A stretch of DNA of 64,000 bases from Saprospiraceae bacterium. Its GTDB lineage: Bacteria; Bacteroidota; Bacteroidia; Chitinophagales; Saprospiraceae. The stretch lies in the NCBI GenBank assembly GCA_036479655.1, contig JAZGFO010000056.1:20451-84450 (forward strand), read 5' to 3'. Shown here piece by piece: positions 3,427-57,617 of this stretch (positions within the stretch are counted from its first letter, which is position 1; the number at the start of each line of letters is the position of its first letter). Both the position numbers and the translations under genes were made by a program. The notes beneath the pieces are model-generated. The model saw only the letters and a program-made list of their open reading frames with translations. It searched no databases and was not told the origin of the DNA.

Positions 3427-3593
3427 ATTTACTAAAATTGAGAATTAAACCATAAAATAGGTACAACCTTGCCAATGAATATCATTGAATGATTCTATCG
3501 TGGTTTAGATTCGTCAACTATCTTATTACAAAGTTCTCTGAAATTAATTTTTCAAATGTAACATAAGTCACAACTAACACCTTTTATACCTTA

Positions 3594-3601
3594 TACATTT
3601 G
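3594..3601 (+). promoter_or_regulatory. Candidate Bacteroidota -7 promoter box (TACATTTG)
   Basis: Exact match to TAnnTTTG, 66 nt upstream of the ATG at 3667. No good -33 TTTG at the expected spacing. Confidence 0.3.
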
Positions 3602-3666
3602 CACTTATATTAGGCTAACTATCTGAGTATATCACTTGATAATAATAGCATTATTTAATAAATAAA

Positions 3667-4304: not shown

Positions 4305-4344
4305 AAAAAGGCATTTGTGAATATTCACAAATGCCTTTTTTTTT
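4305..4344. terminator. Bidirectional intrinsic terminator between convergent genes
   Basis: Perfect 26-nt palindrome ggcatttgtgaatattcacaaatgcc (4310..4335), flanked by A5 upstream and T9 downstream. Confidence 0.85.
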
Positions 4345-4358
4345 AGTCTTTTCCTTTG

Positions 4359-32152: not shown

Positions 32153-33664
32153 ATGAAGCTACCAACAATTATTTTACTATTCTTTTTCGGGTTCTCAATC
32201 AATGCAAGTGCTGGATGTATAAAGGGAAATTGTAAAAATGGAAAAGGTGTACTAATATCTCATTCTGGAGATAGATATGAAGGAAATTTTAAAAATAATA
32301 ATCTAACTGGAAAAGGAAAATGGAAATCTAAATCGGGAGATAGATATCGTGGAGAATTTGTGAATGGGAGAATCGAAGGAAAAGGTAAAATGACTTTTAC
32401 TAATGGAGATTATTATATCGGTGAATTTGTAAATGGACAGTTTCAAGGCCGAGGAAAATATACCTATGCTAATGGTCAGTATTCTATTGGCTCGTGGATC
32501 AATGGTAAAATTAGACAAGAATCTAATACAAACAATACAACATTTGTAGATAATAAAAGTGAAAATAATAACAATAGTTATACCAATACCACAATCAATA
32601 ATAATGAAGGAGCACCAATAGGATTTGCTAATATTACTAAAGATTGTACAATGAAAAATTGTCATAACGAATTAGGGGTATACAATTATTCTGATGGGTC
32701 TAGATACTTAGGTCAATTTATGAATGGATCACCTAAAGGAGAAGGAAGATGTGAATATTTCAATGGAGATCTTTATGAAGGAAGTTGGGCATTGCATGCT
32801 CCTCATGGAAAAGGAGTAATGACATTTTCTTCAGGTAAAAAGTATGCCGCTATCTGGGATTATGGCAATCCAAAAGAACAATTACTAGAGGATATTAACT
32901 ATGTTCCTAAGATCAATTCTAATAAACCCAAATTTTCAGAAGAAGTAAATGTGTATGCATTGGTAGTAGGTGTAGCAAGTTATCAGCATTTGTCTTCTCT
33001 TAAATATACTGACGATGATGCTTATCAAGTATATGCATTTCTCAAGAGCCCAGAAGGAGGAGCAATACCCAATGATAATATCAAAGTACTTATTGACGAT
33101 GTAGCCACTAAGAATAATATACTGATGTCGATGGAACAGTTATTCTCAAAAGCAGATGCTAATGATGTAGTACTACTATACTTATCTGGTCATGGATTTG
33201 ATGGCGCTTTTGTACCTAGTGATTTTGATGGTTATAAGAATCAATTGCCTTATAATGATATTATGAATGTACTTCAAAAATCAGATGCCAAATACAAATT
33301 AGCAATCGCAGATGCATGTCATTCTGGAAGTATTGTTAATAATAAAGGAATAGATTATGCACCAGCATTGGAATCTTACTATAATATATTAGAAGATTTG
33401 GACAATGGTGGTACAGCATTATTATTGTCTTCAGCAGCTAGCGAAGTCTCTTTAGAATATTCGGGGTTGCGCCAAGGAGTTTTTAGTCATTATTTGATGA
33501 ATGGACTTAAAGGTGCCGCAGATAGTAATCAAAACAAAGTAGTTACGCTTACAGAATTGTATGGTTACATCTACAGCAATGTAAGAAACTATACAGCTAA
33601 TAAACAAAGTCCAATATTGACTGGAAATTTTAATGGTAACATGCCTGTTGCAGTGATCAGATGA
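32153..33664 (+). CDS. MORN-repeat / caspase-family (peptidase C14) exported lipoprotein
   Basis: Signal plus lipobox-like INASAGC. Repeated YxGxxxxGxxxGxG MORN units in two blocks separated by an N-rich linker. C-terminal caspase fold with LYLSGHG (His347) and IADACHSG (Cys389). Confidence 0.85.
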   Translation: MKLPTIILLFFFGFSINASAGCIKGNCKNGKGVLISHSGDRYEGNFKNNNLTGKGKWKSKSGDRYRGEFVNGRIEGKGKMTFTNGDYYIGEFVNGQFQGRGKYTYANGQYSIGSWINGKIRQESNTNNTTFVDNKSENNNNSYTNTTINNNEGAPIGFANITKDCTMKNCHNELGVYNYSDGSRYLGQFMNGSPKGEGRCEYFNGDLYEGSWALHAPHGKGVMTFSSGKKYAAIWDYGNPKEQLLEDINYVPKINSNKPKFSEEVNVYALVVGVASYQHLSSLKYTDDDAYQVYAFLKSPEGGAIPNDNIKVLIDDVATKNNILMSMEQLFSKADANDVVLLYLSGHGFDGAFVPSDFDGYKNQLPYNDIMNVLQKSDAKYKLAIADACHSGSIVNNKGIDYAPALESYYNILEDLDNGGTALLLSSAASEVSLEYSGLRQGVFSHYLMNGLKGAADSNQNKVVTLTELYGYIYSNVRNYTANKQSPILTGNFNGNMPVAVIR

Positions 33665-43155: not shown

Positions 43156-46100
43156 TTATTCAGTATCTATCACTGTTATATCGCCTGAGAATTCTTTTAC
43201 AGTACCGTCAATGAACAACAGCTCTGTATAGAATACATACACTCCTGAGACAACTAATGTTTCTTTAAACATTCCGTCCCAACCAACACTTGGGTCTCTC
43301 GGTGGCGCATTCTCTATATCAAACAGCTTTTCTCCCCATCTATCAAATATTTTTAAACTCAATACCGACTCTACATCATCACTCTTAATATAGAACACAT
43401 CATTATCACCATCTCCATTTGGAGAGATAATATTAGGGAATGCTACATCCACTATTTGTTCTAATTGAATTTGAATTTCGTCATGTGCCTCACAACCGTT
43501 TTCATTGGTTACTTGTACATAATAAGTTGTTACATTCTGTGATGGAGTAACTTCTATACTTCCACATTGTAATCCTTGACAGATCGTATCAGTATTATCT
43601 TCAAAATCTGTCCATACAATATTAGTAACTAAGGTACTATCATAGTCAATCGATAATGTAAATGTTTCTCCCAAGTCTCCAACTATATCAGCTCCTGCAT
43701 CAACATAGATAGCTGCAGGTTCTGTAATTGAAAATTCATATTCTTGGATACATCCATTTCCATCCATTATCGTCACTGTATAATCATTAGCTGGCAATGT
43801 ATTCCATGTTGAAGGATCCGTTACTGGTGCTCCCCCATTAAGAGAATATGTATAACTACCATCTCCACCAAACTGATTTATCAATTCTACTCCTCCATCA
43901 TCAAATCCATTACATGATATATCCGTAGGATTTACATCCATCTGAGGTAAATCATCAGAAGTAATAACTTCTACTTGATCTACATCAGTACAACCAGTAG
44001 CACTGTTTATTACAGTTAATTCATAAATTCCTTCATTCATTGCCGTAAAATTAATATCCGTTCCTACTTCAGTACCAGTATTAGTATTAACCCAACTATA
44101 AGAGATATCATCTCCTGTACTTGTCCCTGAATCTCCTAATTGTGCTGATGTAACATCACAATCCAACATCTTAGTATCTCCCGCATCAGCAGTTGGGTTA
44201 GGATCTAGGATCACTGTCACTGTTGTCTGGACATCAGGACAAGGTGCATTATTATCAATTATATAATCAAATGAATATGTACCTTCAGATTGTCCATCAG
44301 TATTGAATGTTGCATTTGCATCATCAAATCCTGTACTTCCAGTTGTTTCTACCCATGTACCTCCAGCATCTTGACCAGACAACTGAGCATTTAGATCTAT
44401 CACTTCTGCAAGTCCTGCACATAATCTGTAATCTTCTGCAATACCAGAGTTTGCTGGTTCTCCGATTAGAATACTAACTACTTCCGTTTCTGGACAATCT
44501 GGCAATGGTGATGTAATTGTATAAGTAAGATCGTAACTTCCTGCCACTACACCATCTATATCTAACATACTTCCAGATATAGTAAGTTCTGTAGAGCTCC
44601 AAGTACCCGGATTATTAATATCATCATATTGAGCTAAATCTACTGGTCCGTCCGTATTACAAACATCATCAGGATCTAATGGATTTATTGGAGGACAATT
44701 ACACTCATCTATAACTGTTACTGTTACTGTATGTACAAAATCTTCACAAGGATCAGCATTGTCGATGGTATATAAGAATGTATATATTCCTACTGGCACA
44801 TTTACAAAACTCGCATTTTGTTGTTCTATTAAAGTGCCAATTGGTACTCCCGAACTAGTTACTTCAGACCAAACTCCAGCACCAGCATTATCTACCAATG
44901 TTGTAAAGTTTACCATAGTAACTCCATTACCAGAATCATCATTACATACTTCTACTTCATCTATTCCATCTGTAAGTTGGTAATTAGAAACATTAAACAT
45001 AACTGACAATGATTGAGTACAAGTACCTGTTACCACTTGATCAAGCGTATATACTATTGTGTATGTACCTGCATTTAAATCAATGGCATCAAATGTGTTA
45101 CCAGTAATTCTATCAGATATGTCTGTTCCTCCAGAAGTAAACACTTCAAATGTACCTGGATCAGAACCATCTGCCAATATCTCTAATTCAAAAGAATCTG
45201 AATCATTACATACATCTGCTGGTGGAACTAACATTATCGGTGGACAATTACAATCTCCAACTGTAATTGTAATTACTGTAGATATATCTGTACATGGCTC
45301 AACTGCTACATTAGTATTAAAAGTAAAAGTAAACATAGAACCAACTGGCTGACCATCAAAATCTACATTTGAGATACCCGCACTTACCTCATCAATAGGT
45401 AAAGTTGGAGTTCCACCAGTCTGCGTCCAAGTACCAAGGGAAGATTCAGAATCTAACCAATCATATAAATTTGATACCGTAGAACCATTACCCGTATCCA
45501 TACTACATGGAGTAGGTCCTGTAATTGGAATAATAACTGGTTGTTTTCTAATTAACAATGAATTTATATAGGCCAATTCACAAGTAGGACCTGCACTATT
45601 ATTCAATGTCCATGTTATATCATATAGACCAGATGGTATATCTGCAGGATCTACCATACTAGTACCCATCAATGTAAGCCCTGAGGCTACTGACCAAGAC
45701 CCTAATAATCCTTCTGGATTTACCAATAAATCATTAAGATCAATAGGTAGTCCATTGTTACACAACGTATCTGTCAATACAGCTATTAATGGGCAATTGC
45801 AATCTCTTACTACAACTGTTACCTCCACAACTGCTGGCGGACACGGAGAGCCTACTGGCGCTTCTGATGTGTACTCAAATGTGAATGTCTCAGGAAAGTC
45901 TGTAAGACTGCTGCTTGATATCATTGATCCACCAGTAATATTTATATTAGTACCTGTCAATTGTGCCCATGTCCCTCCATCTGAAACACTATTAGATATC
46001 AAATCAAATAAGTCCATAGAAGTCGGTGAAGTCTGACCTTCAATATTACATAAATCGCCATCTCCAACAACTGATACTGTAGGCACTTCAAATACAGTAA

Positions 46101-49100
46101 ACATCTGCTCTGAATATTCTTCACATGCAGGTCCTCCTGAATTATCAAGTGTGAACCTTACAGTGTACACTCCTCCTACAATTCCGTTTGCATCAAATAT
46201 AGACCCAGTAATCAAGCCATTAATATCTTGAGCGACTGGTCCCGAAATAACACTCCATGAACCAGGATCTCCTGTCAATACAGACAGATTTAAATCATAA
46301 TCATCATCATTACACATATCTGGCACAAGTGATGTTGCTGGACTCGGGCATGGGCAAGCGACTACATTTACTACCATCACTTTTGATACATCCATACAAG
46401 GTTGCTCCGCATCATTAGTTGTGAATTCAAATACATAATATCCAGTTTGAATTCCTTCAAAACAAACATTATCTAAACCAAAATCACTAAAGACAAAACC
46501 AGGTATAGCACTTACTTGACTCCAAGTACCATTGCTACCACTTACTTGATTATTAAAATTGACACATAATGAATCTACACCACTATCTTCTCGACACACA
46601 TTTACAGTATCAGTAACAGTAATTATAGGTGTCGCAAAATCCATTACTTCAAATGATCCAAATGCATCACATCCAGAAACAATATCAATTGCAGAAACTG
46701 TAAATGTACCAGGGCCTGAAATAGTAAAAGTATTAGTTGTACTTAATACTGTAGTACCATCACTCCATTCAAAATTTATAAAATCTCCATTTACTTCTAT
46801 CGTTTCTCCTATTCCATCACAAATATTTACATCTCCTAAATTAATAGGTATATTATCATCTTGTATAAATGTGACTGTAGAATCATTGGTACATCCATTA
46901 ATGTCAGTTATTGTAAGTGTAACTGTAATCTCAGTAGAAACCGTAATCTCTGGTCCTGTTATAGGAAATTCTGGTGATGTAGATGTCCATACATAAGATA
47001 CTCCACCACTACCTGTCAATGTAGCAGAACTTCCAGCACAGAATACTGTTGATCCCGCCATATCTAATTCAGGAGGAGTATTAACATTAACTGTAAATAT
47101 CTCAATACTTGTACATCCCGTCAGATCAGTCGCTTCTACTTGATAAGTAGCTGTACTATCCGGTGAGAATATAACCGATCCTGTACTCCCAATATCAGGT
47201 GTCCAAACAAATGTATCAAAATCACCAGCATTGGTAACAGTAATCGTTGCTTCATCACCTATACAAATATTTTCAGTACCCGCTATCTCAATAGGTGTAC
47301 CTGTTGTAAGTGGTATATCTATCTCAATACTACTACTACATCCTGCAGGAGTACTCGCTACTATAGTATAACAAGTATAAGATAGCAAATCTACAGCAGG
47401 GAATGTAAATGTTCCAGAATTAGAAAACCCGTCTTCAAGATAATCTTCTTGTGGACATCCTCCGTATAGTACAAAGTCGGTAAGTGGGTTACCAAGAGCA
47501 TCAAATCCAACTATATTTATCAATGCTTCGGTATCTCCACATTCTATATCAAATACAGAAACATTTAGAAGTAATTCTCCTGTAATATTTACTGTCACAC
47601 ATACGGTCTCAGTACACCCAAAAAAGTCAGTCACCTCAGCACACAATTCATATGGACTATTAAATTCAGAACTCGCTTGTTCATTAATTATATATGTCTC
47701 GCCAAATCCACCAACTTCACCTACTAATCCTATAGGGCTAGAATTCCAAACTACATTATAAGGTGCAGATCCACTCAAGTAATCTATCGTCACAAAATAA
47801 TCTGGATCAAAAGGAAAGAAATTATCATCTTTACATACTTCTATTTCATCAGGTAATTCTATAATTACTGGTGGTTTTACATCTACTTGTACTTCTGCAA
47901 TATCTTCACATCCTAAATCATCAGTAACTGTCACAAAATAAGTGGTAGGAACTAATGGACAAACATTGATAGATGCTGTAGTTTCTCCAGTACTCCATTC
48001 ATAAGAATATGGCATACCAAAACCTCCAATAACATCTGGGGTAATATCTGTACAAAATCCATCACATATATAAACATCTGGAGGAAATGTAGCCATTAAT
48101 TCTGGGTATATGGTTACTATTATTTCGTTTTGAGGTCCTGGACAAGGTAATGTTTCATCCTCAGAATACACAGTATAGGTTACCATCTGTATATCATTTG
48201 TAAGATTCGTAAGATCATCTTCTATTGTACCCGTTCCATTTTCAAAAATATATGTCATTTCTCCACTTACGTTAGGATTATCTTCTACTTCAACAATAAT
48301 TGTATTAGTCGATCCGTCTACGGTAGATACAAAAATATTAGTAGTTCCATTAAAGCATATTTCTTCATCTTCTCCCTCTACAGCCGGTGGTGCTTCACAC
48401 TCGACTAACCATGGATAACTCACCATTGCTTTATCAATTAGGCATTCCCCAACTGGATCTTCCCAACATCCACCAACTCCATCAGAAAAGGTTTGGAAAC
48501 TAATCTGAAGATCTCGATTATCAATACAATCTTCATAAGAGTCAAAAGTTTTAACAATAAGAGTAAATTCCCAATCAATCTGAGACATAGTAGATCCAAT
48601 ACCCCATGCTTCCCCTGGAGAGCAATCATTATCACATCCAGCATTGCCACCATTACTAATCCAGAAATATCCACTCGGTAATATATCTCCCTCTACCATA
48701 AATTGTTGATCACATTCACTACAGTTTTCACACAATAGATTACATAGTCTCAATACACCGTTATTATCAATATAAGTACACATATGTGGTAAAGGTTCTT
48801 GGAGAATTGGAGCACAAGCACCACCTTCTTCGAACCAAGTAGCGACTCCTGCAGGTGTACCTGTCGGAGCATTTGCAACATAATCAAAATTTTCAAGATC
48901 CCATCCGGGTCCAAATTTAGGTACAATACCTATTAACCAATCTTGTCCAGTCAGTGTAGCATCGTAGAAGAAACTAATATTTATTGTTACTTCTTCTCCA
49001 GCACAAAATGGTCCTTCTAATGCTCCTTCATTTTCTCGTTCGATTACTTCCATTACAAGAGATGGATCTGTACAATCACTTTCATCTCCTAAGCATATTA

Positions 49101-52100
49101 CCGCATTTATTACTGATGCTACACATATCTTAAAAGTTCCATCATCAATATTTCCATCTTGAGGTAATGATGCTGGATCTACAGTAACTGCTACCCAATA
49201 AGTAGAAAATGCATCTTGAACAGGAGTTTGATGCAATTCTGGTGTGTTATCACCATTACTACAAGGAGGAGCACCTCCAAAAGCCATCACTTCTAAAGAA
49301 GAACAATCATCTCCTCCATAGACAGACCATATAGGTGTCCAGTTTCCTTCTGTTTCTACTGTTGTAAATAATTGAGCTGCCTCATCGTCAGTATTTACTT
49401 GAAACCAAACTGTCGGCATATTAATCATGTCTGGGCATCCTCCAAAATTATCATCTTCAGGACATCCAAAATCAATACAAGATGTAACACAAGTATATAT
49501 AATATCAAATGTCTCTGGTGTCTCCGGTTCAATTGGGGCTGCATCAGCAGTATCGATACATTCGTCCGACATGTCTCCACAAGTAGCAGGGTTAATTGTC
49601 AGAATAAATTCTCCGCATTCATCATCAGCATCATCAGTTGTAACTTTTACAAATAGTATTTGACCAGGATCAGAACAATTTCCAATCTTAATATCTAAAT
49701 TAGTATCTGTACAGGAAGAAGCAATAGTTTCTCCAAATCCACTACATCCTTGGTTTGGTGTCCCCCAATAAATTTCTACAGTTACATTGCCACCAATTCC
49801 ATCTGGCCCACCAACTTCCTCAAGAAAAATTTGATATCCATCATCATCTTCATTAGGCGTATAAGTATACCAGACTGCTGCATCTTCTGTAGCTGCACTA
49901 CAATCGACATTTTCAAGATCAGCAAGTGATCCATCTTCATTTTCATCTTTTGGTCCTCTAGCACAACAAGTCGTTCCTTGATGAGATCCACCACCTGTAA
50001 GGTCAAAAGGAGGATTATCATCCGTATCACAAGGGTCGTCATTTATTGGCGGCACCTCTATTTTGATATTTAAAATAAATCCACCTTCGATATCTGTTTC
50101 TGATCCTACAGCTATATAATAAGTTGTATTATCTTGAATATTTATATCTTCTTCAATAGCTGATGTACCTCCTTCTGTAGTTACGCATATTACATCATTA
50201 TTTACAGCAGTCGGTAGATCAGGACAACCATCATCAATAAATAATCCCCATGTAGGATCAATAATTGGTTCGGGAGACCCATTGTCAGGCTCTATTTCTA
50301 TACTTACAGTAGATGCATTGGCTGGTGTAGTAAATGTAAACCATACTACAGCACTTTTATCAAAAGCACACATATCTCCTGGATCAGCAAATTCTTCAGG
50401 ACAAGCCTGAACATTACAATCTGAAAAATCTAACCATTTACAAGTTTCTGAAACATCTAATACTGTTGCAAATCCACAATCATCATTTACAGAGCAAGGA
50501 TCTGTCTGTAATGTCTCTGTAATCAATATATCAAATTCTCCTTCATCTCCTTCAGCAGATGATACTTGAATCAAATAAGTATTTCCAGCAGGTGGACAAT
50601 CTACCTCTATCGGCTCTATATTTGACGGTTGTCCACATTCTTGACCTGCCATAATTACTTGGACTTGAGAACAATTCGCTGCATCATACTCTAACACTGT
50701 TAGTACTACACCATTCTGTATACCCATAGTCGGATCATTTGTATAGAATACTGTAAAACTTCCAACTCCATCAGGTACTGTATAAGAAAAATATACTGTA
50801 CTATTAAACATATCAGCATCACTACAATCACCTGTTACATAATTCCATGTTTCAGGAGTTGCTGCTACATTGTTATCACAATCTAAAGCAATTGAACCTA
50901 CACCATCTCCATTGACTAATGGATATGGAGAACAAGGATCATCATTACAACTTGTAACTACATTTACACATAAGTCAAAGTCTCCACCAATTTGATCTAC
51001 ATTATCTAAAGCTACAGCAATAATATAAGTAGTATTTGCATTTACTTCCATTCCAGTAAGATTGGCAGCTGACCCATCTCCTTCAACACATAGTGACTCT
51101 GCTGTTTCAGCTGTTGGCGGTTCTGCACATCCAGCTTGAAATACTGAAAATATCGGATTGCCATCAGCACTACTTAGTATCACAGACATGGTAGCGTCTT
51201 CTGCAAGCGCATCAGTTGTTATTTCATAAAATACTGTTGGTAAATCATTATATGCACATACCGCTGCAAAGAAATTTTCAGGACATGCATCAATATTACA
51301 ATCTGTAACACACACTTGACCTCCGTCTGTAATCGGGGTAGCTGTTGGAGCTGTATCATCTGCATCAGAACACAAATCATTATCTACACACAATGGATCT
51401 GGTACAATAGGATCTATGGTAAGATCAAAATCTCCTGCTTCAGCATCATTTGTACTAACCATAATAAAAGCCATTGTATTCTCTTCAAGACAATCAAACT
51501 TCATTTCTACTCCACCTTCTGCTCCACATTCTGTCAATTGGTCTGCATCTAAGAAGGTAACATTTCCACCACCACATGCTGTGTTTTCAAATACACCAAC
51601 TGCAAAATCTTGCCCAGTACCTGTACTTGTCAAAGTTGCTATAAAACCAGTTGTTCCAGCAGGGATAGTATATTCGTACCAAACAGAATTTTCGTCTTGA
51701 GTACCACAAGTAGTATCATCAACATCCATTGTTGCACATGTAGTAGTTCCAGAGACTACAGTATTTACGTCTCCTGCTGTTGTTATTTCTTCTGCTGTAC
51801 ATGGATCATCATTCATCGGTGGTACAAGTACCTTAATCTCAAACATTATACTTGCAGAACCATTGATATTATCAGCTCCAATACCTATTAAGTAGGTCAT
51901 TGGAGGATTGGCCAAAATGTCTATATCTGTAACATTATTTCCAACTGATATTTCACACGCTCCAGATATTGAAGTAGGAACCAAGTCACTACAGTCAGCA
52001 GGATTGCCAGCAAAAACTGAGTAAAAGCCATTACCTGTTGCAGAACTAATTAAATTAATTTGAATCTCCGAAGCATCATCATTTGTGACATCTATCTCAT

Positions 52101-55100
52101 ACCAAACTACTGGAAAATCGTCAAATCCACAATCTGAAGCAAAATCAAATTGCTCCGGACAAGCGTCTATTGTAGATGCATCTACTGGATACCAAACACA
52201 AGTAGGATCAACTACAATTACTGTAGGGTTACTACACATATCATTAGCTACTGGAGATGTGTACTCTGTTGCTAAAATATCAAACCCACCTGAATTGAAG
52301 TCGGAAGTAGATATTCTTATAACATATGTTCCTGGTCCGATACATTCAAAATCTTCCACCAAAGTACCAGAAGTACTACAAGCTTCTTCTTCAAAAGTAG
52401 AGTTATCTGCTATACATCCAGCTGCTGTACTTTCAAATACTACAATATTTACATCTCCCATAAATCCATTGGTCGCTGTAGATGTAACTGTAAGGTCAAA
52501 TCCATTGACTCCATCTGGCACAGTAAATTCATACCATACAGTATTTTCTTCATCAACATCATTACATACATTACTATCAAAAGGTATGATTGCTTGGGTA
52601 GCACAAGTAGTAGTACCCATTGTTGAAACGCCATTATTAAGTATAACACCATCTACACATTCATCATTTGATGGTGCTACTAATACTTTTATTTCAAATT
52701 GAATACTATTTGATCCATTTATATCATCAGCTCCTACACCTATCAAGTAGGTCATTGGTCCATTGGCCAAGATATCTATAATTGTTCCATTATTACCTAA
52801 AGCAGTTTCACATACTCCAGATATTGAAGAAGGAATCAAGTCATTACAATCTATTGGATTACCAGCAAAAATTGAGTAAAATGCATTTCCCGAGGCAGAA
52901 CTAATTAAATTAATTTGTATTTCTGTTGCATTATCATCAGTTACATCTATTTCGTACCAAACTACTGGAAAATCGTCAAATCCACAATCTGAAGCAAAAT
53001 CAAATTGCTCTGGACATGCGTCTACTGTAGTTGCATCTACTGGGTACCATATACACACAGGATCTATTGTGATTACTGTAGGGTTACTACACATATCATT
53101 AGCCACTGGAGATGTGTACTCTGCAGCTAAAATATCAAATTCTCCTGCATTAGCCTCTGATGTAGATATTCTTATTACATATGTTCCAGGTCCGATACAT
53201 TCAAAGTCTTCCACCAAAGTACCAGAAGTACTACAAGCCTCTTCTTCAAAAGTAGAGTTATCTGCTATACAGCCAGCAGCTGTACTTTCAAATACTACAA
53301 TATTTACATCTCCCATAAATCCATTGGTCGCTGTAGATGTAACTGTAAGGTCAAATCCATTGACTCCATCTGGTACAGTAAACTCATACCATACAGTATT
53401 TTCTTCGTCTTGATTCGTACAAACATTACTATCAAAAGGAATAATCTCTTGAGTAGCACAGGTTGTTGTCCCCATTGTTGAAACGCCATTATTAAGTATA
53501 ACGCCATCTACACATTCATCGTTTGCAGGTAGTTCGTTAATTTTTATTTCGAATGAGTGTGGACCTTCTATATCATCTCCAATAGCTATTAAGTAAGTCT
53601 GTCCGGACATGATATCGGTAGGACCGTAAGGGCCTGTTCCAAAAGCACAAGTAAAACCAGCTAAAGCAACAGGATTATCACAATCTGCTGTTGACTCCAT
53701 AATCATTGTAGATACTGTACCTGTACCATTTGTATTTTGTATTTCAACAGTTATTGGATTGGTAGTTGTCGGTGCTGTAAATGAATACCAAACAACAGGT
53801 ATTTGTTCCAAAGTACAAGAATTGAATGTAAAATCCTCAGGACATGCATTTGCAGTATTACCATTTATAGTTTTCCATTCACAAGTATTATCCAGTGCTG
53901 GATCCCATATGCTTAATGCATCAGTACATTCATCATTATTATCATTAGGTTGGGTAGTGTTTTCATTGGTTATAATCGTAAAATCCCCTTCTTCTGTAAC
54001 TGCACTTCCTACCATAATTATAATAGTAACCCCTTGTTCTATACAATTAATAGATGCCATATTACCCAATATATTACAATAGTCGGCTACTGTCGTACCT
54101 TCAAAAATTGTCATTGCATTACAATCATCTGTAAATACTACCATAGATAATCCTGTAGCGGCAGATCCATTAGAAGCATCTCCAGCAAATGTAATTTCTA
54201 AATCTACATTTGCAACTGTATTATTAGTATATTCATAAAATACTTGGTGGTCATTAGCAATAGTTTGTCCACAAAAGTCAAAGTTACCTGTAGCACAATT
54301 TGTAGAACCAGTTGCTGTAGTAAAAATGTCAGGATTAGTAGCTGAATCACAATCATTATTTATAGGTGATTCGTTAATTTTTATATCAAAAGAATGTACG
54401 CCCTCGCCTCCTGGATCAGCTACAGCTATCAAATATGTAGTACCTGATACTATATCATAAGGTCCAAATGGTCCAACTCCACTATTACACATTGCAGTTG
54501 GTAATACAGTTTGTACATCACAATCTAATGTCATTTCAAATATTGTAGCATATAATGCGCCTATTCCAGATAAGTTTTGCATTTCTACTGAAAGCGAGTT
54601 TGTAGAAATTGGTGCAGTAAATGAGTACCAAACTGTAGGGTCATCATCATAATTGCATCCTACCAAATTAAAATCTTCGGGACATGCTTCTGCAGTACTT
54701 CCATTAATCGTTTTCCAAGAACACGTATTGTCAGCTGGAACATTATCTCCATCCCATATCAATAGTGCATTGCTACATTCATCATTATCATCTGTAGGTT
54801 GAGTATTAATTACATTTGTCAATATATTAAAATCACCTTCATCACCATCACTACTTCCAACAACAATTATAATTGTTTCTCCATTTTCAATACAATCAAT
54901 CATATTTGCAGTACCTAAAACATTACAATAATCTGATGCTGTAGTGCCATTAAAAAGTGTAAATGCATTACAATCCGTTATTACCAACATTGATACATTT
55001 GCTGCTGGTGTACCATTAGTTGCATCTGCTGAAAATGTAACTTCTAAATCTATATTAACTCCAGTACTATTAGTATATTGATAAAATACTTGATGGTCAT

Positions 55101-56961
55101 TTGTTGTAGTCATCCCACAAAAAATCACCTCTCCATCAGCACAAGTAGTGCTACCCATAGTTGTCGCTGTTATATCAGGATTAGTCCCTAAGTCACAATC
55201 ATCATTGGTAGGTGCACTTGTCAATTCTATATCTAAGTTAAATGTCCCTGACATTTGATTTGTCTGAGGTGCAACTGCTATATAATACTGCGTATTTGGC
55301 AATAGAGTAATATTAGCTTCTATGCCATCTGTCTGACAACTATTTACTATAGATCCAGTACAACTACCTTCAATTATAGCAAACATTCCTGCTCCCATTG
55401 ATATCGAAGTAAGATTAACCTCAGCTTCTTGGGTAGTTACTGTATTAGTAGTAAAAGTGTACCATACTGTAGCTTCCGTATCAAAAGCACATGTACCTAT
55501 AGCAGCAGCTTCTGGACAAGCATTCTCTGTTGTTCCTGATACTGAAAAAGTAGTACAGTTAGGCGGTATTATAACTGTCGGAGCTGAAGAAATAGGATCA
55601 TTAAACAAGTCTGCATTCATACATCCATCATTAGTAGGTGGTGTACTTGCTGTCAATGTCATAGAATAATTGCCCTCAAAAGCATCACAAGATGCTACTT
55701 GAATAAGGTAAGTACCTGGCATAAGACAAAAATCTTCATTTGTATTTCCATTATATTCATAACCATTAAAAGCTGTTGCATCTGTACATGCTGTCAAAAT
55801 AGTTACTTGAGAAGTTGAAATCGTTCCTTCATTATAGTTAAGATTAACATTTGTATTCCCTGTGCCACCTATTGTAAATTCATAATAAACAGTACTATAA
55901 GAACCCGAACCACAGCCCGCTATTAAACCAGGAGTAAAGGATTCTGAAGTCGAAGAGGCTCCAAAGTTATCAACTTGTGTTATTGATGTACCAACTCCAT
56001 CTACTAATGTTCCTAAAGCCTCTGGAATACTACAATCATCTCCCACCAATGGTGGTAAAGGACTATTTACACATATATTAAATGATCCATCAGAACCATA
56101 AGGATATGCAACTTGTAAATAATAAGTTTGACCAGCAATCAACATGTCTTCTAACATCAAATTACCATTATTATCGCATTGTACTAATGTCAATCCACCA
56201 CAAGCACCTGAATAAAGTGCTACAGATAAACCTGTACCTGTTGTGTTTTCGACATACAAATCATCACCCGCAGTAAAACTATACCACATCGTAGCTTCGT
56301 TGTCAAAAATACAAACTCCATCAGCAACCATATCCCCTTTTAATTCTTGAAAATTATTAAGTGTTGTACCTGTAATATTGTTGGCACAAGTAATGACTGT
56401 ACCATCTGTACCTGGGTCAAGAGAAACTGCATTAGCACAATTATCTCCAAGTGCCAATGATGGTTGTCCTCCACTTAAGCCAGCAGTAACAGTAAGATCA
56501 TATGCGCCTTGATTGGCAGCATCGGTCAATATCACTATATAATAGGTAGTGCTCTGTGTAAAGCAGTTCTCAAATGTTTGAGGATTCATAATATTAGGAT
56601 CATGACAAGCCAAAAAAGTATTCATATTAGGCGTACCACAATTAGCTAAAGAAGCTTCAATAATTACAGCAATATGCCCTGCTCCAACTAAATCAATAGT
56701 TATATCGTTTTCATTGACAAGATCAATTCTATACCACTCATCTATAGTAAGTGTAGTAGGATTGTCACAGGATGCTGTCATTTGTGGAGCTCCACCCCAA
56801 AAACCACTTGCTGTATTATCAGCTGTAGTACCAGAAACAAGATTGCCAGAATTCAAATCAGCTGCACCTAAGGATGTAGCCGTGTTACAATCTTCTGACT
56901 GGGCAAAACTTATGTTAATAAGTGCCAAAATAAGGGAAAAGCCGAGTATTAGTCGTCTCAT
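43156..56961 (-). CDS. Giant (4,601 aa) T9SS type-B cargo / surface repeat protein
   Basis: Uninterrupted 13,806-nt ORF. Signal peptide MRRLILGFSLILALINISFAQ. 18 Cys-rich ~140-aa domains, a unique hub and Ig-like repeats. C-terminal FPNIISPNGDGDNDVFYI ... FDRWGEKLF ... GVYVFY sorting domain. Confidence 0.95.
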   Translation of the reverse strand: MRRLILGFSLILALINISFAQSEDCNTATSLGAADLNSGNLVSGTTADNTASGFWGGAPQMTASCDNPTTLTIDEWYRIDLVNENDITIDLVGAGHIAVIIEASLANCGTPNMNTFLACHDPNIMNPQTFENCFTQSTTYYIVILTDAANQGAYDLTVTAGLSGGQPSLALGDNCANAVSLDPGTDGTVITCANNITGTTLNNFQELKGDMVADGVCIFDNEATMWYSFTAGDDLYVENTTGTGLSVALYSGACGGLTLVQCDNNGNLMLEDMLIAGQTYYLQVAYPYGSDGSFNICVNSPLPPLVGDDCSIPEALGTLVDGVGTSITQVDNFGASSTSESFTPGLIAGCGSGSYSTVYYEFTIGGTGNTNVNLNYNEGTISTSQVTILTACTDATAFNGYEYNGNTNEDFCLMPGTYLIQVASCDAFEGNYSMTLTASTPPTNDGCMNADLFNDPISSAPTVIIPPNCTTFSVSGTTENACPEAAAIGTCAFDTEATVWYTFTTNTVTTQEAEVNLTSISMGAGMFAIIEGSCTGSIVNSCQTDGIEANITLLPNTQYYIAVAPQTNQMSGTFNLDIELTSAPTNDDCDLGTNPDITATTMGSTTCADGEVIFCGMTTTNDHQVFYQYTNSTGVNIDLEVTFSADATNGTPAANVSMLVITDCNAFTLFNGTTASDYCNVLGTANMIDCIENGETIIIVVGSSDGDEGDFNILTNVINTQPTDDNDECSNALLIWDGDNVPADNTCSWKTINGSTAEACPEDFNLVGCNYDDDPTVWYSFTAPISTNSLSVEMQNLSGIGALYATIFEMTLDCDVQTVLPTAMCNSGVGPFGPYDIVSGTTYLIAVADPGGEGVHSFDIKINESPINNDCDSATNPDIFTTATGSTNCATGNFDFCGQTIANDHQVFYEYTNNTVANVDLEITFAGDASNGSAATGLSMVVFTDDCNAMTIFEGTTVADYCNILGNMASINCIEQGVTIIIMVGSAVTEEGDFTIITNENTTQPNDNNDECTDALSIWDPALDNTCEWKTINGNTANACPEDFTFNSCTLEQIPVVWYSFTAPTTTNPITVEIQNTNGTGTVSTMIMESTADCDNPVALAGFTCAFGTGPYGPTDIMSGQTYLIAIGDDIEGPHSFEIKINELPANDECVDGVILNNGVSTMGTTTCATQEIIPFDSNVCTNQDEENTVWYEFTVPDGVNGFDLTVTSTATNGFMGDVNIVVFESTAAGCIADNSTFEEEACSTSGTLVEDFECIGPGTYVIRISTSEANAGEFDILAAEYTSPVANDMCSNPTVITIDPVCIWYPVDATTVDACPEQFDFASDCGFDDFPVVWYEIDVTDDNATEIQINLISSASGNAFYSIFAGNPIDCNDLIPSSISGVCETALGNNGTIIDILANGPMTYLIGVGADDINGSNSIQFEIKVLVAPSNDECVDGVILNNGVSTMGTTTCATQAIIPFDSNVCNDVDEENTVWYEFTVPDGVNGFDLTVTSTATNGFMGDVNIVVFESTAAGCIADNSTFEEEACSTSGTLVEDFECIGPGTYVIRISTSDFNSGGFDILATEYTSPVANDMCSNPTVIVVDPTCVWYPVDASTIDACPEQFDFASDCGFDDFPVVWYEIDVTNDDASEIQINLISSATGNGFYSVFAGNPADCSDLVPTSISGACEISVGNNVTDIDILANPPMTYLIGIGADNINGSASIMFEIKVLVPPMNDDPCTAEEITTAGDVNTVVSGTTTCATMDVDDTTCGTQDENSVWYEYTIPAGTTGFIATLTSTGTGQDFAVGVFENTACGGGNVTFLDADQLTECGAEGGVEMKFDCLEENTMAFIMVSTNDAEAGDFDLTIDPIVPDPLCVDNDLCSDADDTAPTATPITDGGQVCVTDCNIDACPENFFAAVCAYNDLPTVFYEITTDALAEDATMSVILSSADGNPIFSVFQAGCAEPPTAETAESLCVEGDGSAANLTGMEVNANTTYIIAVALDNVDQIGGDFDLCVNVVTSCNDDPCSPYPLVNGDGVGSIALDCDNNVAATPETWNYVTGDCSDADMFNSTVYFSYTVPDGVGSFTVFYTNDPTMGIQNGVVLTVLEYDAANCSQVQVIMAGQECGQPSNIEPIEVDCPPAGNTYLIQVSSAEGDEGEFDILITETLQTDPCSVNDDCGFATVLDVSETCKWLDFSDCNVQACPEEFADPGDMCAFDKSAVVWFTFTTPANASTVSIEIEPDNGSPEPIIDPTWGLFIDDGCPDLPTAVNNDVICVTTEGGTSAIEEDINIQDNTTYYIAVGSETDIEGGFILNIKIEVPPINDDPCDTDDNPPFDLTGGGSHQGTTCCARGPKDENEDGSLADLENVDCSAATEDAAVWYTYTPNEDDDGYQIFLEEVGGPDGIGGNVTVEIYWGTPNQGCSGFGETIASSCTDTNLDIKIGNCSDPGQILFVKVTTDDADDECGEFILTINPATCGDMSDECIDTADAAPIEPETPETFDIIYTCVTSCIDFGCPEDDNFGGCPDMINMPTVWFQVNTDDEAAQLFTTVETEGNWTPIWSVYGGDDCSSLEVMAFGGAPPCSNGDNTPELHQTPVQDAFSTYWVAVTVDPASLPQDGNIDDGTFKICVASVINAVICLGDESDCTDPSLVMEVIERENEGALEGPFCAGEEVTINISFFYDATLTGQDWLIGIVPKFGPGWDLENFDYVANAPTGTPAGVATWFEEGGACAPILQEPLPHMCTYIDNNGVLRLCNLLCENCSECDQQFMVEGDILPSGYFWISNGGNAGCDNDCSPGEAWGIGSTMSQIDWEFTLIVKTFDSYEDCIDNRDLQISFQTFSDGVGGCWEDPVGECLIDKAMVSYPWLVECEAPPAVEGEDEEICFNGTTNIFVSTVDGSTNTIIVEVEDNPNVSGEMTYIFENGTGTIEDDLTNLTNDIQMVTYTVYSEDETLPCPGPQNEIIVTIYPELMATFPPDVYICDGFCTDITPDVIGGFGMPYSYEWSTGETTASINVCPLVPTTYFVTVTDDLGCEDIAEVQVDVKPPVIIELPDEIEVCKDDNFFPFDPDYFVTIDYLSGSAPYNVVWNSSPIGLVGEVGGFGETYIINEQASSEFNSPYELCAEVTDFFGCTETVCVTVNITGELLLNVSVFDIECGDTEALINIVGFDALGNPLTDFVLYGGCPQEDYLEDGFSNSGTFTFPAVDLLSYTCYTIVASTPAGCSSSIEIDIPLTTGTPIEIAGTENICIGDEATITVTNAGDFDTFVWTPDIGSTGSVIFSPDSTATYQVEATDLTGCTSIEIFTVNVNTPPELDMAGSTVFCAGSSATLTGSGGVSYVWTSTSPEFPITGPEITVSTEITVTLTITDINGCTNDSTVTFIQDDNIPINLGDVNICDGIGETIEVNGDFINFEWSDGTTVLSTTNTFTISGPGTFTVSAIDIVSGCDAFGSFEVMDFATPIITVTDTVNVCREDSGVDSLCVNFNNQVSGSNGTWSQVSAIPGFVFSDFGLDNVCFEGIQTGYYVFEFTTNDAEQPCMDVSKVMVVNVVACPCPSPATSLVPDMCNDDDYDLNLSVLTGDPGSWSVISGPVAQDINGLITGSIFDANGIVGGVYTVRFTLDNSGGPACEEYSEQMFTVFEVPTVSVVGDGDLCNIEGQTSPTSMDLFDLISNSVSDGGTWAQLTGTNINITGGSMISSSSLTDFPETFTFEYTSEAPVGSPCPPAVVEVTVVVRDCNCPLIAVLTDTLCNNGLPIDLNDLLVNPEGLLGSWSVASGLTLMGTSMVDPADIPSGLYDITWTLNNSAGPTCELAYINSLLIRKQPVIIPITGPTPCSMDTGNGSTVSNLYDWLDSESSLGTWTQTGGTPTLPIDEVSAGISNVDFDGQPVGSMFTFTFNTNVAVEPCTDISTVITITVGDCNCPPIMLVPPADVCNDSDSFELEILADGSDPGTFEVFTSGGTDISDRITGNTFDAIDLNAGTYTIVYTLDQVVTGTCTQSLSVMFNVSNYQLTDGIDEVEVCNDDSGNGVTMVNFTTLVDNAGAGVWSEVTSSGVPIGTLIEQQNASFVNVPVGIYTFLYTIDNADPCEDFVHTVTVTVIDECNCPPINPLDPDDVCNTDGPVDLAQYDDINNPGTWSSTELTISGSMLDIDGVVAGSYDLTYTITSPLPDCPETEVVSILIGEPANSGIAEDYRLCAGLAEVIDLNAQLSGQDAGGTWVETTGSTGFDDANATFNTDGQSEGTYSFDYIIDNNAPCPDVQTTVTVILDPNPTADAGDTKMLDCDVTSAQLGDSGTSTGDDISYSWVNTNTGTEVGTDINFTAMNEGIYELTVINSATGCTDVDQVEVITSDDLPQMDVNPTDISCNGFDDGGVELINQFGGDGSYTYSLNGGAPVTDPSTWNTLPANDYTVTIMDGNGCIQEYEFSITEPAAIYVDAGADIVGDLGETFTLSIDYDSTLVTNIVWTDFEDNTDTICQGLQCGSIEVTPSQNVTTYYVQVTNENGCEAHDEIQIQLEQIVDVAFPNIISPNGDGDNDVFYIKSDDVESVLSLKIFDRWGEKLFDIENAPPRDPSVGWDGMFKETLVVSGVYVFYTELLFIDGTVKEFSGDITVIDTE
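44200..46365 (-). repeat. Four in-frame ~170-187-aa modules each opening with C(N/P)CP
   Basis: Module starts read in translation: ACPCPSP (~46365), DCNCPLI (~45805), DCNCPPI (~45255), ECNCPPI (~44710). Each contains a GxW(S/T) and a G(x)Y(x)(I/F)xYT pattern twice. Confidence 0.7.
51821..53530 (-). repeat. Young in-frame tandem duplication, 2 x 855 bp (285 codons)
   Basis: Units 52676..53530 and 51821..52675. The offset was measured from identical strings (attactgtagggttactacacatatcattagc at 52217 and 53072). The core is about 95 percent or more identical, including a ~90-nt run with no difference. Confidence 0.9.
53531..55222 (-). repeat. Older in-frame tandem duplication, 2 x ~846 bp
   Basis: Units 54376..55222 and 53531..54375 encode the same two-domain module (NDDCDLGTNPDITATTMGSTTCADG... 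versus NNDCDSATNPDIFTTATGSTNCATG...). Roughly 60-65 percent aa identity by eye. Confidence 0.8.
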
Positions 56962-57544
56962 AGTAGTTAGTATGTTAATTCAATAATAAATTTAATGCAC
57001 GCAATGTATGCTTACACGTAAGATGGGAAACCGCCTGTCTGGAACAAAGAAAATGGAAAATGTCTTTGTTAAAGTATTCGTATTGTCATGCAATATAAGA
57101 AATATTATATTGAAAAAACAAATAAAAGTAAAATCAAATATTTATAAACCATATGACCATCTTCAATATGATATAATAAACTCCTCAAAATTAACGAAGT
57201 CAGATTATTATACATTAAAAAATATTAGATAAACAATAAAAAAATTAAAAGCTTTTAACATTAAGAATACTCAATTATTGGGCAAAATATTTATTATTTG
57301 CATTTATATATGTGTAAATACGATCCAAAATATTTCTAAATGAGAATTTTTTATTTAAAAATGATAGTTTACTTCAATTAAGTAAAAGTTATTTCCTAAA
57401 AAAATCAATAAATTATGTCATAATAACAAATGAAATATCTTTTCAAGCTCTAATATATTTTAATAAAGAAGGAAAATAAACAGGATAAACACACCCTTCA
57501 AACAACAACAAAGCCCCAACAAATGAATGCTGAGGCTATGTTTG

Positions 57545-57617
57545 TGGTGCCTCCCAGATTTGAACTGGGGACACATGGATTTTCAGTCCATTGCTCTACC
57601 AACTGAGCTAAGGCACC
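57545..57617 (-). tRNA. tRNA-Phe (anticodon GAA)
   Basis: The reverse complement GGTGCCTTAGCTCAGTTGGTAGAGCAATGGACTGAAAATCCATGTGTCCCCAGTTCAAATCTGGGAGGCACCA folds as a 73-nt cloverleaf. Acceptor GGTGCCT/AGGCACC, D stem GCTC/GAGC, anticodon stem ATGGA/TCCAT with loop CTGAAAA, T stem CCCAG/CTGGG. CCA is not encoded. Confidence 0.97.

Follow-up and report, generated by a model that had tools for sequence, protein, structure and literature searches.

Eighteen tandem PPC-like domains, very probably divergent copies of PF23759, in a giant protein with T9SS sorting features from a Saprospiraceae bacterium

Two giant proteins are the closest described counterparts of the one analysed here, namely SprB of F. 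johnsoniae and GhpA of Aureispira (Saprospiraceae), with which it has in common a size in the range of 4,600–6,500 aa, a Sec signal peptide, long repeat arrays, richness in (here predicted) disulfides and a C-terminal T9SS sorting domain. GhpA is a giant T9SS cargo with an N-terminal distal binding module, a disulfide-bearing Ig-like stem and a C-terminal sorting domain (bioRxiv 10.1101/2024.01.29.577165), and another report describes PorP-like proteins as anchoring cargo with a type B C-terminal domain (PMC9143113). At the level of the single domain, close counterparts are PPC domains and the clostridial collagen-binding domains (CBDs). Cys-stapled PPC variants exist, e.g., those with two disulfides in M9A collagenases; collagen binding by the ColG CBDs requires Ca2+, whereas in Grimontia collagenase a PPC segment with disulfides binds collagen in the absence of Ca2+ (PMC6168687). 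For the Pfam family PF23759 (GBD_T9SS_assoc), our literature search found neither papers nor a published function or ligand of any member.

[quoted passage not shown] By inspection of the translation, the putative signal peptide has a basic n-region, a hydrophobic core and a small-x-small pattern preceding Q21. Downstream of the array, 20 of the 150 top homologues show conservation of aa 2622–3100, and a second array (aa ~3440–4260), for which we found no Pfam match, has its C-x-C-P motifs at aa 3536, 3721, 3904 and 4087. The whole protein had no match among PDB sequences. Its repeats set it apart from GhpA and SprB, whose repeats are described as Ig-like (GhpA also having an adhesin-like hook), as opposed to the PPC-like domains found here.

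Table 1 Features of the giant protein and its gene (window coordinates; U, unit; AF2, AlphaFold model).
Feature	Residues (aa)	Window position	Strand	Basis
Whole gene, giant, predicted secreted protein of 4,601 aa		43156..56961	-	single uninterrupted ORF
Predicted Sec-type signal peptide, MRRLILGFSLILALINISFA cut before Q21	1-20	56902..56961	-	translation, by inspection
Unit 1, deviant, 5 Cys	20-167	56461..56904	-	family HMM E 9e-15; AF2 pLDDT 74.8
Unit 2, canonical 'M-type' Cys pattern (c25 + c141)	168-302	56056..56460	-	family HMM E 4e-30
Unit 3, deviant A-like	303-439	55645..56055	-	family HMM
Unit 4, subtype B (ACPE)	440-581	55219..55644	-	family HMM, motif
Unit 5, subtype A (GSTTCA)	582-721	54799..55218	-	family HMM; 60% identity with U7
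Unit 6, subtype B	722-864	54370..54798	-	family HMM; PF23759 21.7 bits, best single unit
Unit 7, subtype A	865-1004	53950..54369	-	family HMM, motif
Unit 8, subtype B	1005-1142	53536..53949	-	family HMM; 59% identity with U6
Unit 9, subtype A, modelled jointly with U10	1143-1283	53113..53535	-	motif, family HMM
Unit 10, subtype B	1284-1427	52681..53112	-	motif, family HMM
Unit 11, subtype A, recent U9 duplicate	1428-1568	52258..52680	-	91% aa identity
Unit 12, subtype B, recent U10 duplicate	1569-1712	51826..52257	-	81% aa identity
Unit 13, subtype A	1713-1856	51394..51825	-	motif, homologue comparison
Unit 14, subtype B, 9 Cys	1857-2001	50959..51393	-	motif, homologue comparison
Unit 15, deviant A-like, 7 Cys	2002-2154	50500..50958	-	nearest relatives in other proteins
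Unit 16, subtype B	2155-2302	50056..50499	-	best PPC (PF04151) match, 19.4 bits
Unit 17, A-like (GTTCCA), 8 Cys	2303-2457	49591..50055	-	motif, homologue comparison
Unit 18, subtype B (GCPED), 9 Cys	2458-2621	49099..49590	-	motif, family HMM
Conserved Cys-rich region after array	2622-2867	48361..49098	-	no Pfam or PDB sequence match
PKD_5-like domain	~2868-2954	48100..48360	-	PF19406 33.1 bits (cut-off 25)
Ig_7 (CHU_C-associated Ig-like) domain	3228-3297	47071..47280	-	PF19081 31.3 bits, segment scanned alone
Second array, about four ~185-aa repeats joined at C-x-C-P motifs	~3440-4260	44182..46644	-	self-comparison
SprB repeat, sub-threshold	4344-4378	43828..43932	-	PF13573 24.1 bits (cut-off 28)
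T9SS type B C-terminal sorting domain	4507-4587	43201..43443	-	PF13585 CHU_C 49 bits (cut-off 27); TIGR04131 41.8 bits (cut-off 35)

A first-pass annotation of the sequence had recognised an array of 18 copies of an unassigned Cys-rich domain at 49101..56898, and our analysis bears this out: this interval corresponds to aa 22..2621 of one ORF, and we delimit the copies here as 18 abutting units of 135–164 aa (aa 20–2621; 49099..56904, minus strand). A family HMM built almost entirely from copies in other proteins found exactly these 18 units, each near full length and with independent E-values of 9e-15 to 5e-33, and no further units elsewhere in the 64-kb window. This recovery is far beyond chance, and the HMM envelopes leave no linkers between units. 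The N-D-x-C / VWYxFT / TYYIxV / GxFxI core of the family is common to every unit, and all motif strings quoted from the translation at first pass (W-box, TYYI-V box and terminal G-x-F-x-L/I) are present in it. Some details have to be corrected. The units contain 5–9 Cys instead of 4–6; the P-x-N-D opening ascribed to each of them has a strict N-D in 14 of the 18, with E-D in U1, D-N in U2, D-D in U3 and S-D in U18; and the cut points suggested for two example units (52676..53100 and 53101..53530) lie 5–12 nt off the boundaries found here.

We conclude that the units are very probably divergent copies of PF23759, a beta-sandwich domain of ~135–150 aa and of the PPC/collagen-binding type. The whole protein matched PF23759 with 32.6 bits (cut-off 27; E 1.1e-7) in 3 stretches, the best of which (aa 173–285, in Unit 2) spans profile positions 3–103 of 116. 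When the 18 units were scanned singly, eight matched at E<1, all of them sub-threshold (best 21.7 bits), and none reached the gathering score of 27 bits. A profile of the 18 units aligned end to end with PF23759-matching stretches of other proteins (hhalign 99.5%, E 3.2e-22, columns 2–141 vs. 1–129), a comparison that is not fully independent because these proteins were retrieved with the unit HMM. The comparison set comprised five stretches (bits listed 32.5–148.9), four of them above the PF23759 cut-off and two at 97–149 bits; their Pfam scores are independent of the unit HMM. A strong match between complete units and a curated family is thus reached only indirectly, and the direct Pfam match is weak both for the protein as a whole and for each unit. 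The first-pass view that the Cys framework and motifs correspond to nothing nameable does not hold for the motifs and the core cysteines: the PF23759 stretches likewise begin with P-x-N-D-x-C, carry the VW(Y/F)xFT and G-x-TY(Y/F)(L/I)xV boxes together with the Cys pair, and end in F-x-I.

In short, the units and PF23759 appear to be the same domain from end to end, sharing the cysteines c46, c92 and c104 as well as the motif boxes, and both form long arrays of tandem copies in proteins that carry T9SS sorting domains. They differ in that the Pfam model fits copies of the 'M-type', whose putative third disulfide is c25-c141, with scores of up to 149 bits, whereas the A and B copies described below reach at most 21.7 bits and have their own third Cys pair, their own motifs (GTTxCA and ACPE) and an alternating order. 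The subtypes with the ACPE motif and the GTTxCA Cys are thus poorly represented by the Pfam model. In the precomputed annotation of public contigs, PF23759 is given only as 'faint'. The striking 7.8-kb repeat is therefore real and regularly organised, yet it is not a new kind of domain or an unknown fold: it very probably belongs, as a divergent branch, to a very large and functionally unstudied family that was curated recently and is related to collagen-binding PPC domains, an identity that does not overturn current understanding.

The jelly-roll fold of the PPC/collagen-binding kind guessed at first pass agrees with structure prediction and with profile searches, and on the predicted models the units are jelly-roll beta-sandwiches of this type. 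For the model of U1 (pLDDT 74.8), the top Foldseek matches were the ColG CBD (1nqj) and the PPC domain of B. anthracis collagenase (5sv5), together with 1nqd (E 5e-4 to 2e-3, target-normalised TM 0.61–0.75); for the joint model of U9 and U10 (pLDDT 82.8, pTM 0.77), the top match was the tandem CBD of ColG (5iku; E 4e-10). Searched against PDB sequences, a 40-sequence family profile matched the PPC domain of a Vibrio metalloprotease (2luw) at E 1.4e-6 and 5sv5 at 0.009, while the best match of the 18-unit profile was a collagenase PPC domain at E 0.47 (a SAM-synthase match in the latter search was spurious). Thus, both the single and the tandem models have their best PDB matches in domains of the same beta-sandwich fold, and the sequence relation to PPC can be detected from the W-box through the C-terminal strand. 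The PPC model PF04151 itself matched 3 of the 18 units at E<1, including U16 (19.4 bits, E 0.002, profile positions 3–69 of 70) and U9 (16.2 bits), and none of the 18 reached its gathering score of 25.9 bits. Compared with PPC and ColG domains, the units have ~30–40 more residues and an additional N-terminal segment that bears Cys; they also lack an attached peptidase and occur in 18 copies vs. 1–3. Further Foldseek matches of the U1 model included CBM6, CBM29, a porphyran-binding CBM and other jelly rolls (E ~1e-3 to 1e-2), meaning that the fold does not fix the ligand. As specific relatives we rejected CBM6/CBM29, CUB/neuropilin, the SIDT1 ectodomain and botulinum HA70, all of them generic jelly-roll matches with poor superposition.

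Co-occurrence of cysteines over 1,226 domain instances yields a testable disulfide map. The associations obtained were c8/c92 (phi 0.91), c25/c141 (0.71), c46/c104 (0.63) and c36/c117 (0.54), and c117 and c141 were mutually exclusive, with 3 co-occurrences. The cysteines c8, c46, c92 and c104 are common to the units and to PF23759 copies, whereas the remaining pair is c25-c141 in canonical copies, c36-c117 in A and c25+c36 in B. From the co-occurrence pattern, we think it rather probable that two disulfides (c8-c92 and c46-c104) are invariant and that a third is specific to the subtype, linking c36 to c117 in A, c25 to c36 around the ACPE motif in B, and c25 to c141 in PF23759 copies of the canonical kind.

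The start of the domain is well conserved, with N in 93% and D in 90% of family instances. In a weak hhalign alignment with the ColG s3a/s3b sequences (E 0.003, low probability), this N-D falls on N903-D904 of ColG and the G-T/S of the units on G921-S922. The Ca2+ site of ColG reportedly consists of an N-D and an acidic cluster before the aromatic box (E899, E901, N903, D904, D927 and D930), and the N903/D904 and G921-S922 positions were reportedly described as Ca2+ ligands by Wilson and colleagues in 2003. In the same weak alignment the second ligand cluster of ColG is only partly conserved: the D927 column is 38% acidic and D930 aligns with a hydrophobic (Val) column, so that the site is at best partly retained. 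By analogy with N903/D904, we tentatively propose that the nearly invariant N-D may help to form a Ca2+ site where neighbouring domains meet, although we consider this somewhat less probable than its opposite.

Two subtypes of unit do alternate, as had been noted at first pass. The GTTxCA type (A) comprises U5, 7, 9, 11, 13 and 17 and the ACPE type (B) comprises U4, 6, 8, 10, 12, 14, 16 and 18, while U1–U3 and U15 deviate from this typing. The closest relatives of each unit in other proteins are of the same subtype as that unit, and A and B are two conserved sub-lineages. The proposal that the true repeat is a pair of ~285 aa is likewise supported, by DNA repeat periods of 846–855 bp, by pairwise identities (U9/U11 91%, U10/U12 81%, U5/U7 60% and U6/U8 59%, with remaining pairs at 21–44%) and by homologue mapping, in which U9 and U11 map to one module of the closest homologue and U10 and U12 likewise to one. 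The array thus grows by duplication of A+B pairs. Across 149 typed representatives among the top 150, 40 (about a quarter) are A/B-rich, and transitions between neighbouring units were AB in 81 cases, BA in 67, AA in 52 and BB in 3. In a homologue with 53% overall identity, the positional counterparts of U13–U18 are 59–69% identical to them, whereas these units are 21–44% identical to their own neighbours.

It is possible, if doubtful, that the A+B pair is a module in its own right, both structurally and functionally, in which the two domains are obligate partners, i.e., a PF23759 sub-family beyond current curated models with its own disulfide wiring (c36-c117 in A and a c25-c36 'ACPE' staple in B). 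Packed into a rigid heterotypic unit, such a module would give rise, in Saprospiraceae-like Bacteroidota, to a surface filament of a new type, highly acidic and free of Lys/Arg, with a specific ligand or assembly role. The A+B module also offers a defined construct for finding ligands of abundant giant T9SS cargo proteins.

An exhaustive HMM search retrieved 8,162 representative proteins at E<=1e-3; at the stricter limit of E<=1e-30 there were 585. Many of the proteins contain 10–22 copies. Given that the Pfam model misses most A/B-type copies, sub-family models would better annotate thousands of giant surface proteins of Bacteroidota. Word-indexed searches brought up only 2 fragments for the unit alignment and 3 for a four-unit segment, and are uninformative on distribution; a scan of genome contigs with the whole protein found a single locus, in a Bacteroidota MAG, at 40% identity. 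Looking up the giant protein by exact identity gave no record. The nearest named homologue of the giant protein comes from a Saprospiraceae MAG.

With moderate confidence, our best overall explanation is that the PF23759/PPC-type array is the N-terminal half of a giant, T9SS-exported surface protein, and by analogy with the systems above this protein probably serves as a surface filament or adhesin. The chain would be exported by Sec, and its domains would fold and form disulfides in the periplasm. The T9SS would then secrete the folded chain, whose C-terminal domain would keep it on the outer membrane via a partner of the PorP/SprF type encoded at another locus. In this arrangement a proximal stalk would be formed by the Ig/PKD-like C-terminal half and the distal, exposed part by the 18 PPC-like domains, possibly with Ca2+ at inter-domain junctions stiffening the linker-free array. 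The N-terminal end is also where GhpA has its distal binding module, although homology to GhpA has no support (there was no PDB sequence match, the PDB set possibly being without GhpA chains, and the architecture differs by description). Most likely, the array makes up the distal, adhesive portion of a giant surface filament, stapled by disulfides and possibly binding Ca2+. Its units, diversified and conserved by position, most likely offer polymers or particles a multivalent surface for adhesion or binding, instead of serving as interchangeable spacers.

An unlikely alternative is that the array is a structural extender only, i.e., a rigid, protease-resistant rod that keeps another functional part at a distance from the cell, as do the Ig-like extenders of RTX adhesins or the stem of GhpA, with unit divergence and A/B alternation serving only to prevent misfolding between neighbours. 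Abutting units, three predicted disulfides in each, the pTM of the A+B pair model and the scarcity of BB neighbours (3 of 203 A/B transitions, as expected if identical neighbours are avoided) all fit such a rod, and the GhpA stem is also disulfide-rich (bioRxiv 10.1101/2024.01.29.577165). However, the array is N-terminal and far from the anchoring CTD, with only the signal peptide beyond it, so that there is no other 'head' to present; where domains of this fold have been solved (the ColG CBD and, in Grimontia collagenase, the PPC segment), they are binding modules; homologues show conservation of individual unit positions; and AA neighbours are common, meaning that avoidance of like neighbours is not strict.

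We regard as improbable the idea that the units are carbohydrate-binding modules with a CBM6-like cleft for marine polysaccharides (agar, porphyran or xylan-type), which would make the protein a polysaccharide-capture filament. Pfam does place PF23759 among 'galactose-binding domain-like' folds, and CBM6, CBM29 and the porphyran-binding CBM were matched by Foldseek at E 3e-3 to 1e-2, but these matches rank below PPC/CBD and superpose poorly (TM 0.3–0.4, rmsd about 10 A), and no CBM family in Pfam was matched at E<=1 by any of the 18 units. Moreover, window ORF scans showed no glycoside hydrolase or PUL (SusC/SusD) genes adjoining the giant gene, and the conserved aromatics W55, Y56, F58, Y124 and F138 lie in predicted strands and therefore look like core rather than cleft residues. 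Finally, that these are classical pre-peptidase C-terminal domains, assisting the secretion of a protease and then cleaved from it, is suggested by the weak PF04151 matches and by PPC being the best structural and sequence match in the PDB, but this reading of the protein as a protease precursor is effectively refuted, as a Pfam scan found no peptidase family in the 4,601 aa, the PF04151 gathering score was missed, and the domains are N-terminal and reiterated 18 times instead of lying C-terminal to a catalytic domain.

Pfam scans of 27 other ORFs in the window showed that the genes flanking the giant gene are housekeeping genes, a glycerate kinase gene being one neighbour, and found no PorP/SprF-like gene among these ORFs (for type B cargo such a neighbour is common but not obligatory); this differs from the ghpABC cluster, in which PorP/PorE-type genes (ghpB/ghpC) are present. 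ORFs on the opposite strand within the array (e.g., 52085..52702) were treated as by-products of the long gene. Two public assemblies both carry the identical 4,601-residue gene product.

The Cys-rich domain that the first-pass annotation had left unassigned at 49101-56898 lies in aa 22-2621 of a single giant protein. We divided aa 20-2621 into 18 tandem units (U1-U18, numbered from the N-terminus; see Table) of 135-164 aa each and aligned them, and all motif strings quoted in that annotation were found among them. Its count of 18 copies also held: a family HMM of 1,226 domain instances, of which other proteins contributed 1,208, recovered exactly 18 units, each near full length (E 9e-15 to 5e-33), with no further match in the window outside U1-U18. 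Two details needed correction, as the units contain 5-9 Cys rather than 4-6, and the N-D opening ascribed to every unit is strict in 14 of the 18 but not in the other four.

The whole giant protein scored 32.6 bits against PF23759 (GBD_T9SS_assoc, 'galactose binding domain-like'), above the Pfam cut-off of 27. Scanned singly, 8 of the 18 units matched PF23759 and 3 matched PPC (PF04151), none of the 18 reaching either cut-off (best 21.7 and 19.4 bits, respectively). Run as an exhaustive HMM search, the 18-unit profile matched 8,162 representative proteins at E<=1e-3; of these, 3,050 reached E<=1e-10 and 585 reached E<=1e-30, and many carry 10-22 copies. PF23759 was above cut-off in six of nine such proteins scanned, two of which scored strongly (P0136, 148.9 bits in 5 stretches; P0098, 96.9 bits). 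The PF23759-matched stretches carry P-x-N-D-x-C, VW(Y/F)xFT, a Cys pair, G-x-TY(Y/F)(L/I)xV and F-x-I-C, as the window units do. A profile-profile comparison of the window units with five such stretches, which come from proteins retrieved with the unit HMM, gave an end-to-end match (99.5% probability, E 3e-22). Because of this match and the shared motifs, the array domain is, as judged from sequence, a member of the curated family PF23759, in a branch poorly fitted by its model.

In the unit-HMM alignment of 1,226 near-full-length instances (1,208 from the 150 best proteins plus the 18 window units), the most conserved columns were N5 (93%), D6 (90%), C8 (94%), C46 (87%), C92 (94%) and C104 (72%), together with A11, V54-W55-Y56, F58, G121, Y124 and F138. 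Cysteines co-varied most clearly between alignment positions c8 and c92 (phi 0.91; 1,145 instances with both, 12 with one only), with phi of 0.63 for c46/c104, 0.71 for c25/c141 and 0.54 for c36/c117; c117 and c141 occurred together in just 3 of the 1,226 instances. This co-occurrence predicts two fixed disulfides and a third in alternative forms, which would be c25-c141 in canonical PF23759-type copies (M), c36-c117 in subtype A and c25-c36 around ACPE in subtype B. Subtype A is marked by G-[ST]-T-x-C-A plus a late Cys ahead of the TYYI-V box, and subtype B by A/G-C-P-E. Among 149 typed representatives and the window protein there were 76 M-type and 40 A/B-rich arrays, and A/B neighbour transitions were AB 81, BA 67, AA 52 and BB 3. 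The PF23759 score follows subtype: M arrays score high, while three of five A/B arrays scanned scored 36-45 bits and two had no match. Pfam already lists the domain, and such an architecture is common in public data, where giant homologues have also been deposited. The A/B sub-family, strictly paired and with a predicted Cys wiring of its own, has yet to be described, as has any function of the PF23759 family.

The alternation of the two subtypes proposed earlier is strict in U4-U14 and U16-U18, but U1-U3 and U15 deviate from it; the closest relatives elsewhere of each window unit share that unit's subtype. The proposal that the A+B pair is the repeat is supported. DNA repeat periods in the array are 846-855 bp, i.e., one A+B pair, and unit identities are 91% for U9/U11, 81% for U10/U12, 60% for U5/U7 and 59% for U6/U8 (remaining pairs 21-44%). 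In the nearest homologue, P0003 (MDF1696034.1, Saprospiraceae MAG; 53% identity over 4,587 aa), U13-U18 map one-to-one (59-69% identity), whereas U9/U11 map to one unit and U10/U12 likewise to one, so the array grows by duplication of A+B modules. We also noted that U9U10 to U11U12 is a lineage-specific tandem duplication of a whole module; it is absent from this closest homologue, which has 21 units in total, and copy number therefore varies among relatives.

An AlphaFold2 model of U1 from the 18-unit alignment (pLDDT 74.8) had as first-ranked Foldseek matches in the PDB the ColG collagen-binding domain (CBD; 1nqj, 1nqd) and the B. anthracis collagenase PPC domain 5sv5 (E 5e-4 to 2e-3, target-normalised TM 0.61-0.75). 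The model of the A+B pair U9+U10, from 26 aligned A+B modules (pLDDT 82.8, pTM 0.77), best matched the ColG tandem CBD s3a-s3b (5iku, E 4e-10), with a different domain orientation. Against PDB sequences, a 40-member family profile matched the Vibrio-type metalloprotease PPC 2luw (E 1.4e-6) and 5sv5 (E 0.009). From these model and profile matches, the initial guess of a jelly-roll/PPC fold was correct at superfamily level.

The identical 4,601-residue product is called in NCBI GCA_044240345.1 and ENA ERZ25083849, both with this contig. Its N-terminus is a Sec signal peptide of typical form (MRRLILGFSLILALINISFA, followed by Q), and at its C-terminus lies a T9SS type B sorting domain (CTD; PF13585 49 bits, TIGR04131 41.8 bits, both above cut-off). 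Because about 20 top homologues share this CTD and the conserved post-array region, the giant protein is, by sequence comparison, a recurrent family; NCBI labels its homologues only 'gliding motility-associated C-terminal domain-containing protein'. Aa 2622-3100, including a PKD_5-like domain, matched 20 of the 150 top homologues (E 1e-36 to 1e-229), and the Cys-rich part of this region may be an undescribed domain. Repeats of the second array are linked at C-x-C-P motifs (aa 3536, 3721, 3904 and 4087), each apparently comprising two Ig-like halves, and a Pfam scan of that array gave no family match.

Features of the window, with residue ranges in the giant protein where applicable
Feature	Position	Strand	Residues (aa)	Remarks
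Giant gene	43156..56961	-		single uninterrupted ORF, 4,601 aa
18-unit array	49099..56904	-	20-2621	U1-U18
U9U10 to U11U12 duplication	51826..53535	-		855-bp period
Post-array Cys-rich region	48361..49098	-	2622-2867	no Pfam or PDB sequence match
Second, distinct repeat array	44182..46644	-	~3440-4260	~4 repeats of ~185 aa
CHU_C (type B CTD) protein	28537..31863	+		Lys+Arg 1.6%
CHU_C (type B CTD) protein	9951..12938	-		Lys+Arg 3.2%
MORN/Peptidase_C14 protein	32153..33664	+		503 aa
Highly charged protein	23238..26576	-		1,112 aa
tRNA-Phe (GAA)	57544..57617	-		

The giant protein has an extremely acidic composition and carries 18 abutting, linker-free PPC-like sandwiches as well as a Sec signal and a type B CTD. 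Proteins with a type B CTD are exported through the T9SS and retained at the surface via PorP-like proteins (PMC9143113). GhpA, a giant T9SS cargo, has its distal binding module at the N-terminus and a stem made of disulfide-linked Ig-like repeats (bioRxiv 10.1101/2024.01.29.577165); by analogy, we infer that the C-terminal PKD/Ig-like half would be a proximal stalk and the 18 units the distal, exposed part. Collagen binding by ColG CBDs requires Ca2+, and the disulfide-containing PPC segment of Grimontia collagenase binds collagen without it (PMC6168687). We aligned the ColG s3a/s3b sequences, checked against the PDB, to the family profile: G-T/S fell on G921-S922, and because N-D fell on N903-D904 but D930 on a Val column, at a weak score (E 0.003), a Ca2+ site at the unit junction is plausible but unproven. 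For the array as a whole, we favour multivalent binding over a pure spacer because unit positions are conserved across homologues while neighbouring units are divergent, although this is the weakest step of the proposal. A more novel reading makes the A+B pair an obligate module in its own right, belonging to an acidic surface filament of a new kind; we consider this less likely than not.

Basic residues are nearly lacking in the giant protein (28 Lys and 17 Arg, or 1.0% of its 4,601 aa), and the array has 0.73% Lys+Arg vs 15% Asp+Glu. Lys is normally abundant in a genome of 32% GC such as this one, and the window ORFs of at least 250 aa other than the giant protein and the two CHU_C proteins have 7.9-16.7% Lys+Arg. 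Among the homologues checked, Lys+Arg was 0.6-1.2% in four of A/B type and 2.1-4.7% in four of M type. The giant protein has fewer copies of the Bacteroidota O-glycosylation sequon, D-(S/T)-(A/I/L/V/M/T), than its shuffles do (11 vs 31.8 +/- 5.1), and so does the array (4 vs 18.3 +/- 3.7); the GhpA stem, by contrast, is heavily glycosylated, and the depletion points the opposite way.

The giant gene is flanked by housekeeping genes (glycerate kinase, TraB/GumN, hexapeptide transferase, LytTR regulator, SurA-like PPIase and KsgA), with no PorP/SprF gene among the window ORFs scanned. The tRNA-Phe gene lies ~580 bp upstream on the same strand, inside an 867-bp gap ahead of the divergently transcribed SurA-like PPIase gene. 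Elsewhere in the window, the highly charged protein (Lys+Arg 16.7%, Asp+Glu 18.6%) has only a partial DUF4175 match, and a protein that has both MORN repeats and a caspase-like Peptidase_C14 domain adjoins a 1,108-aa PKD/CHU_C protein.
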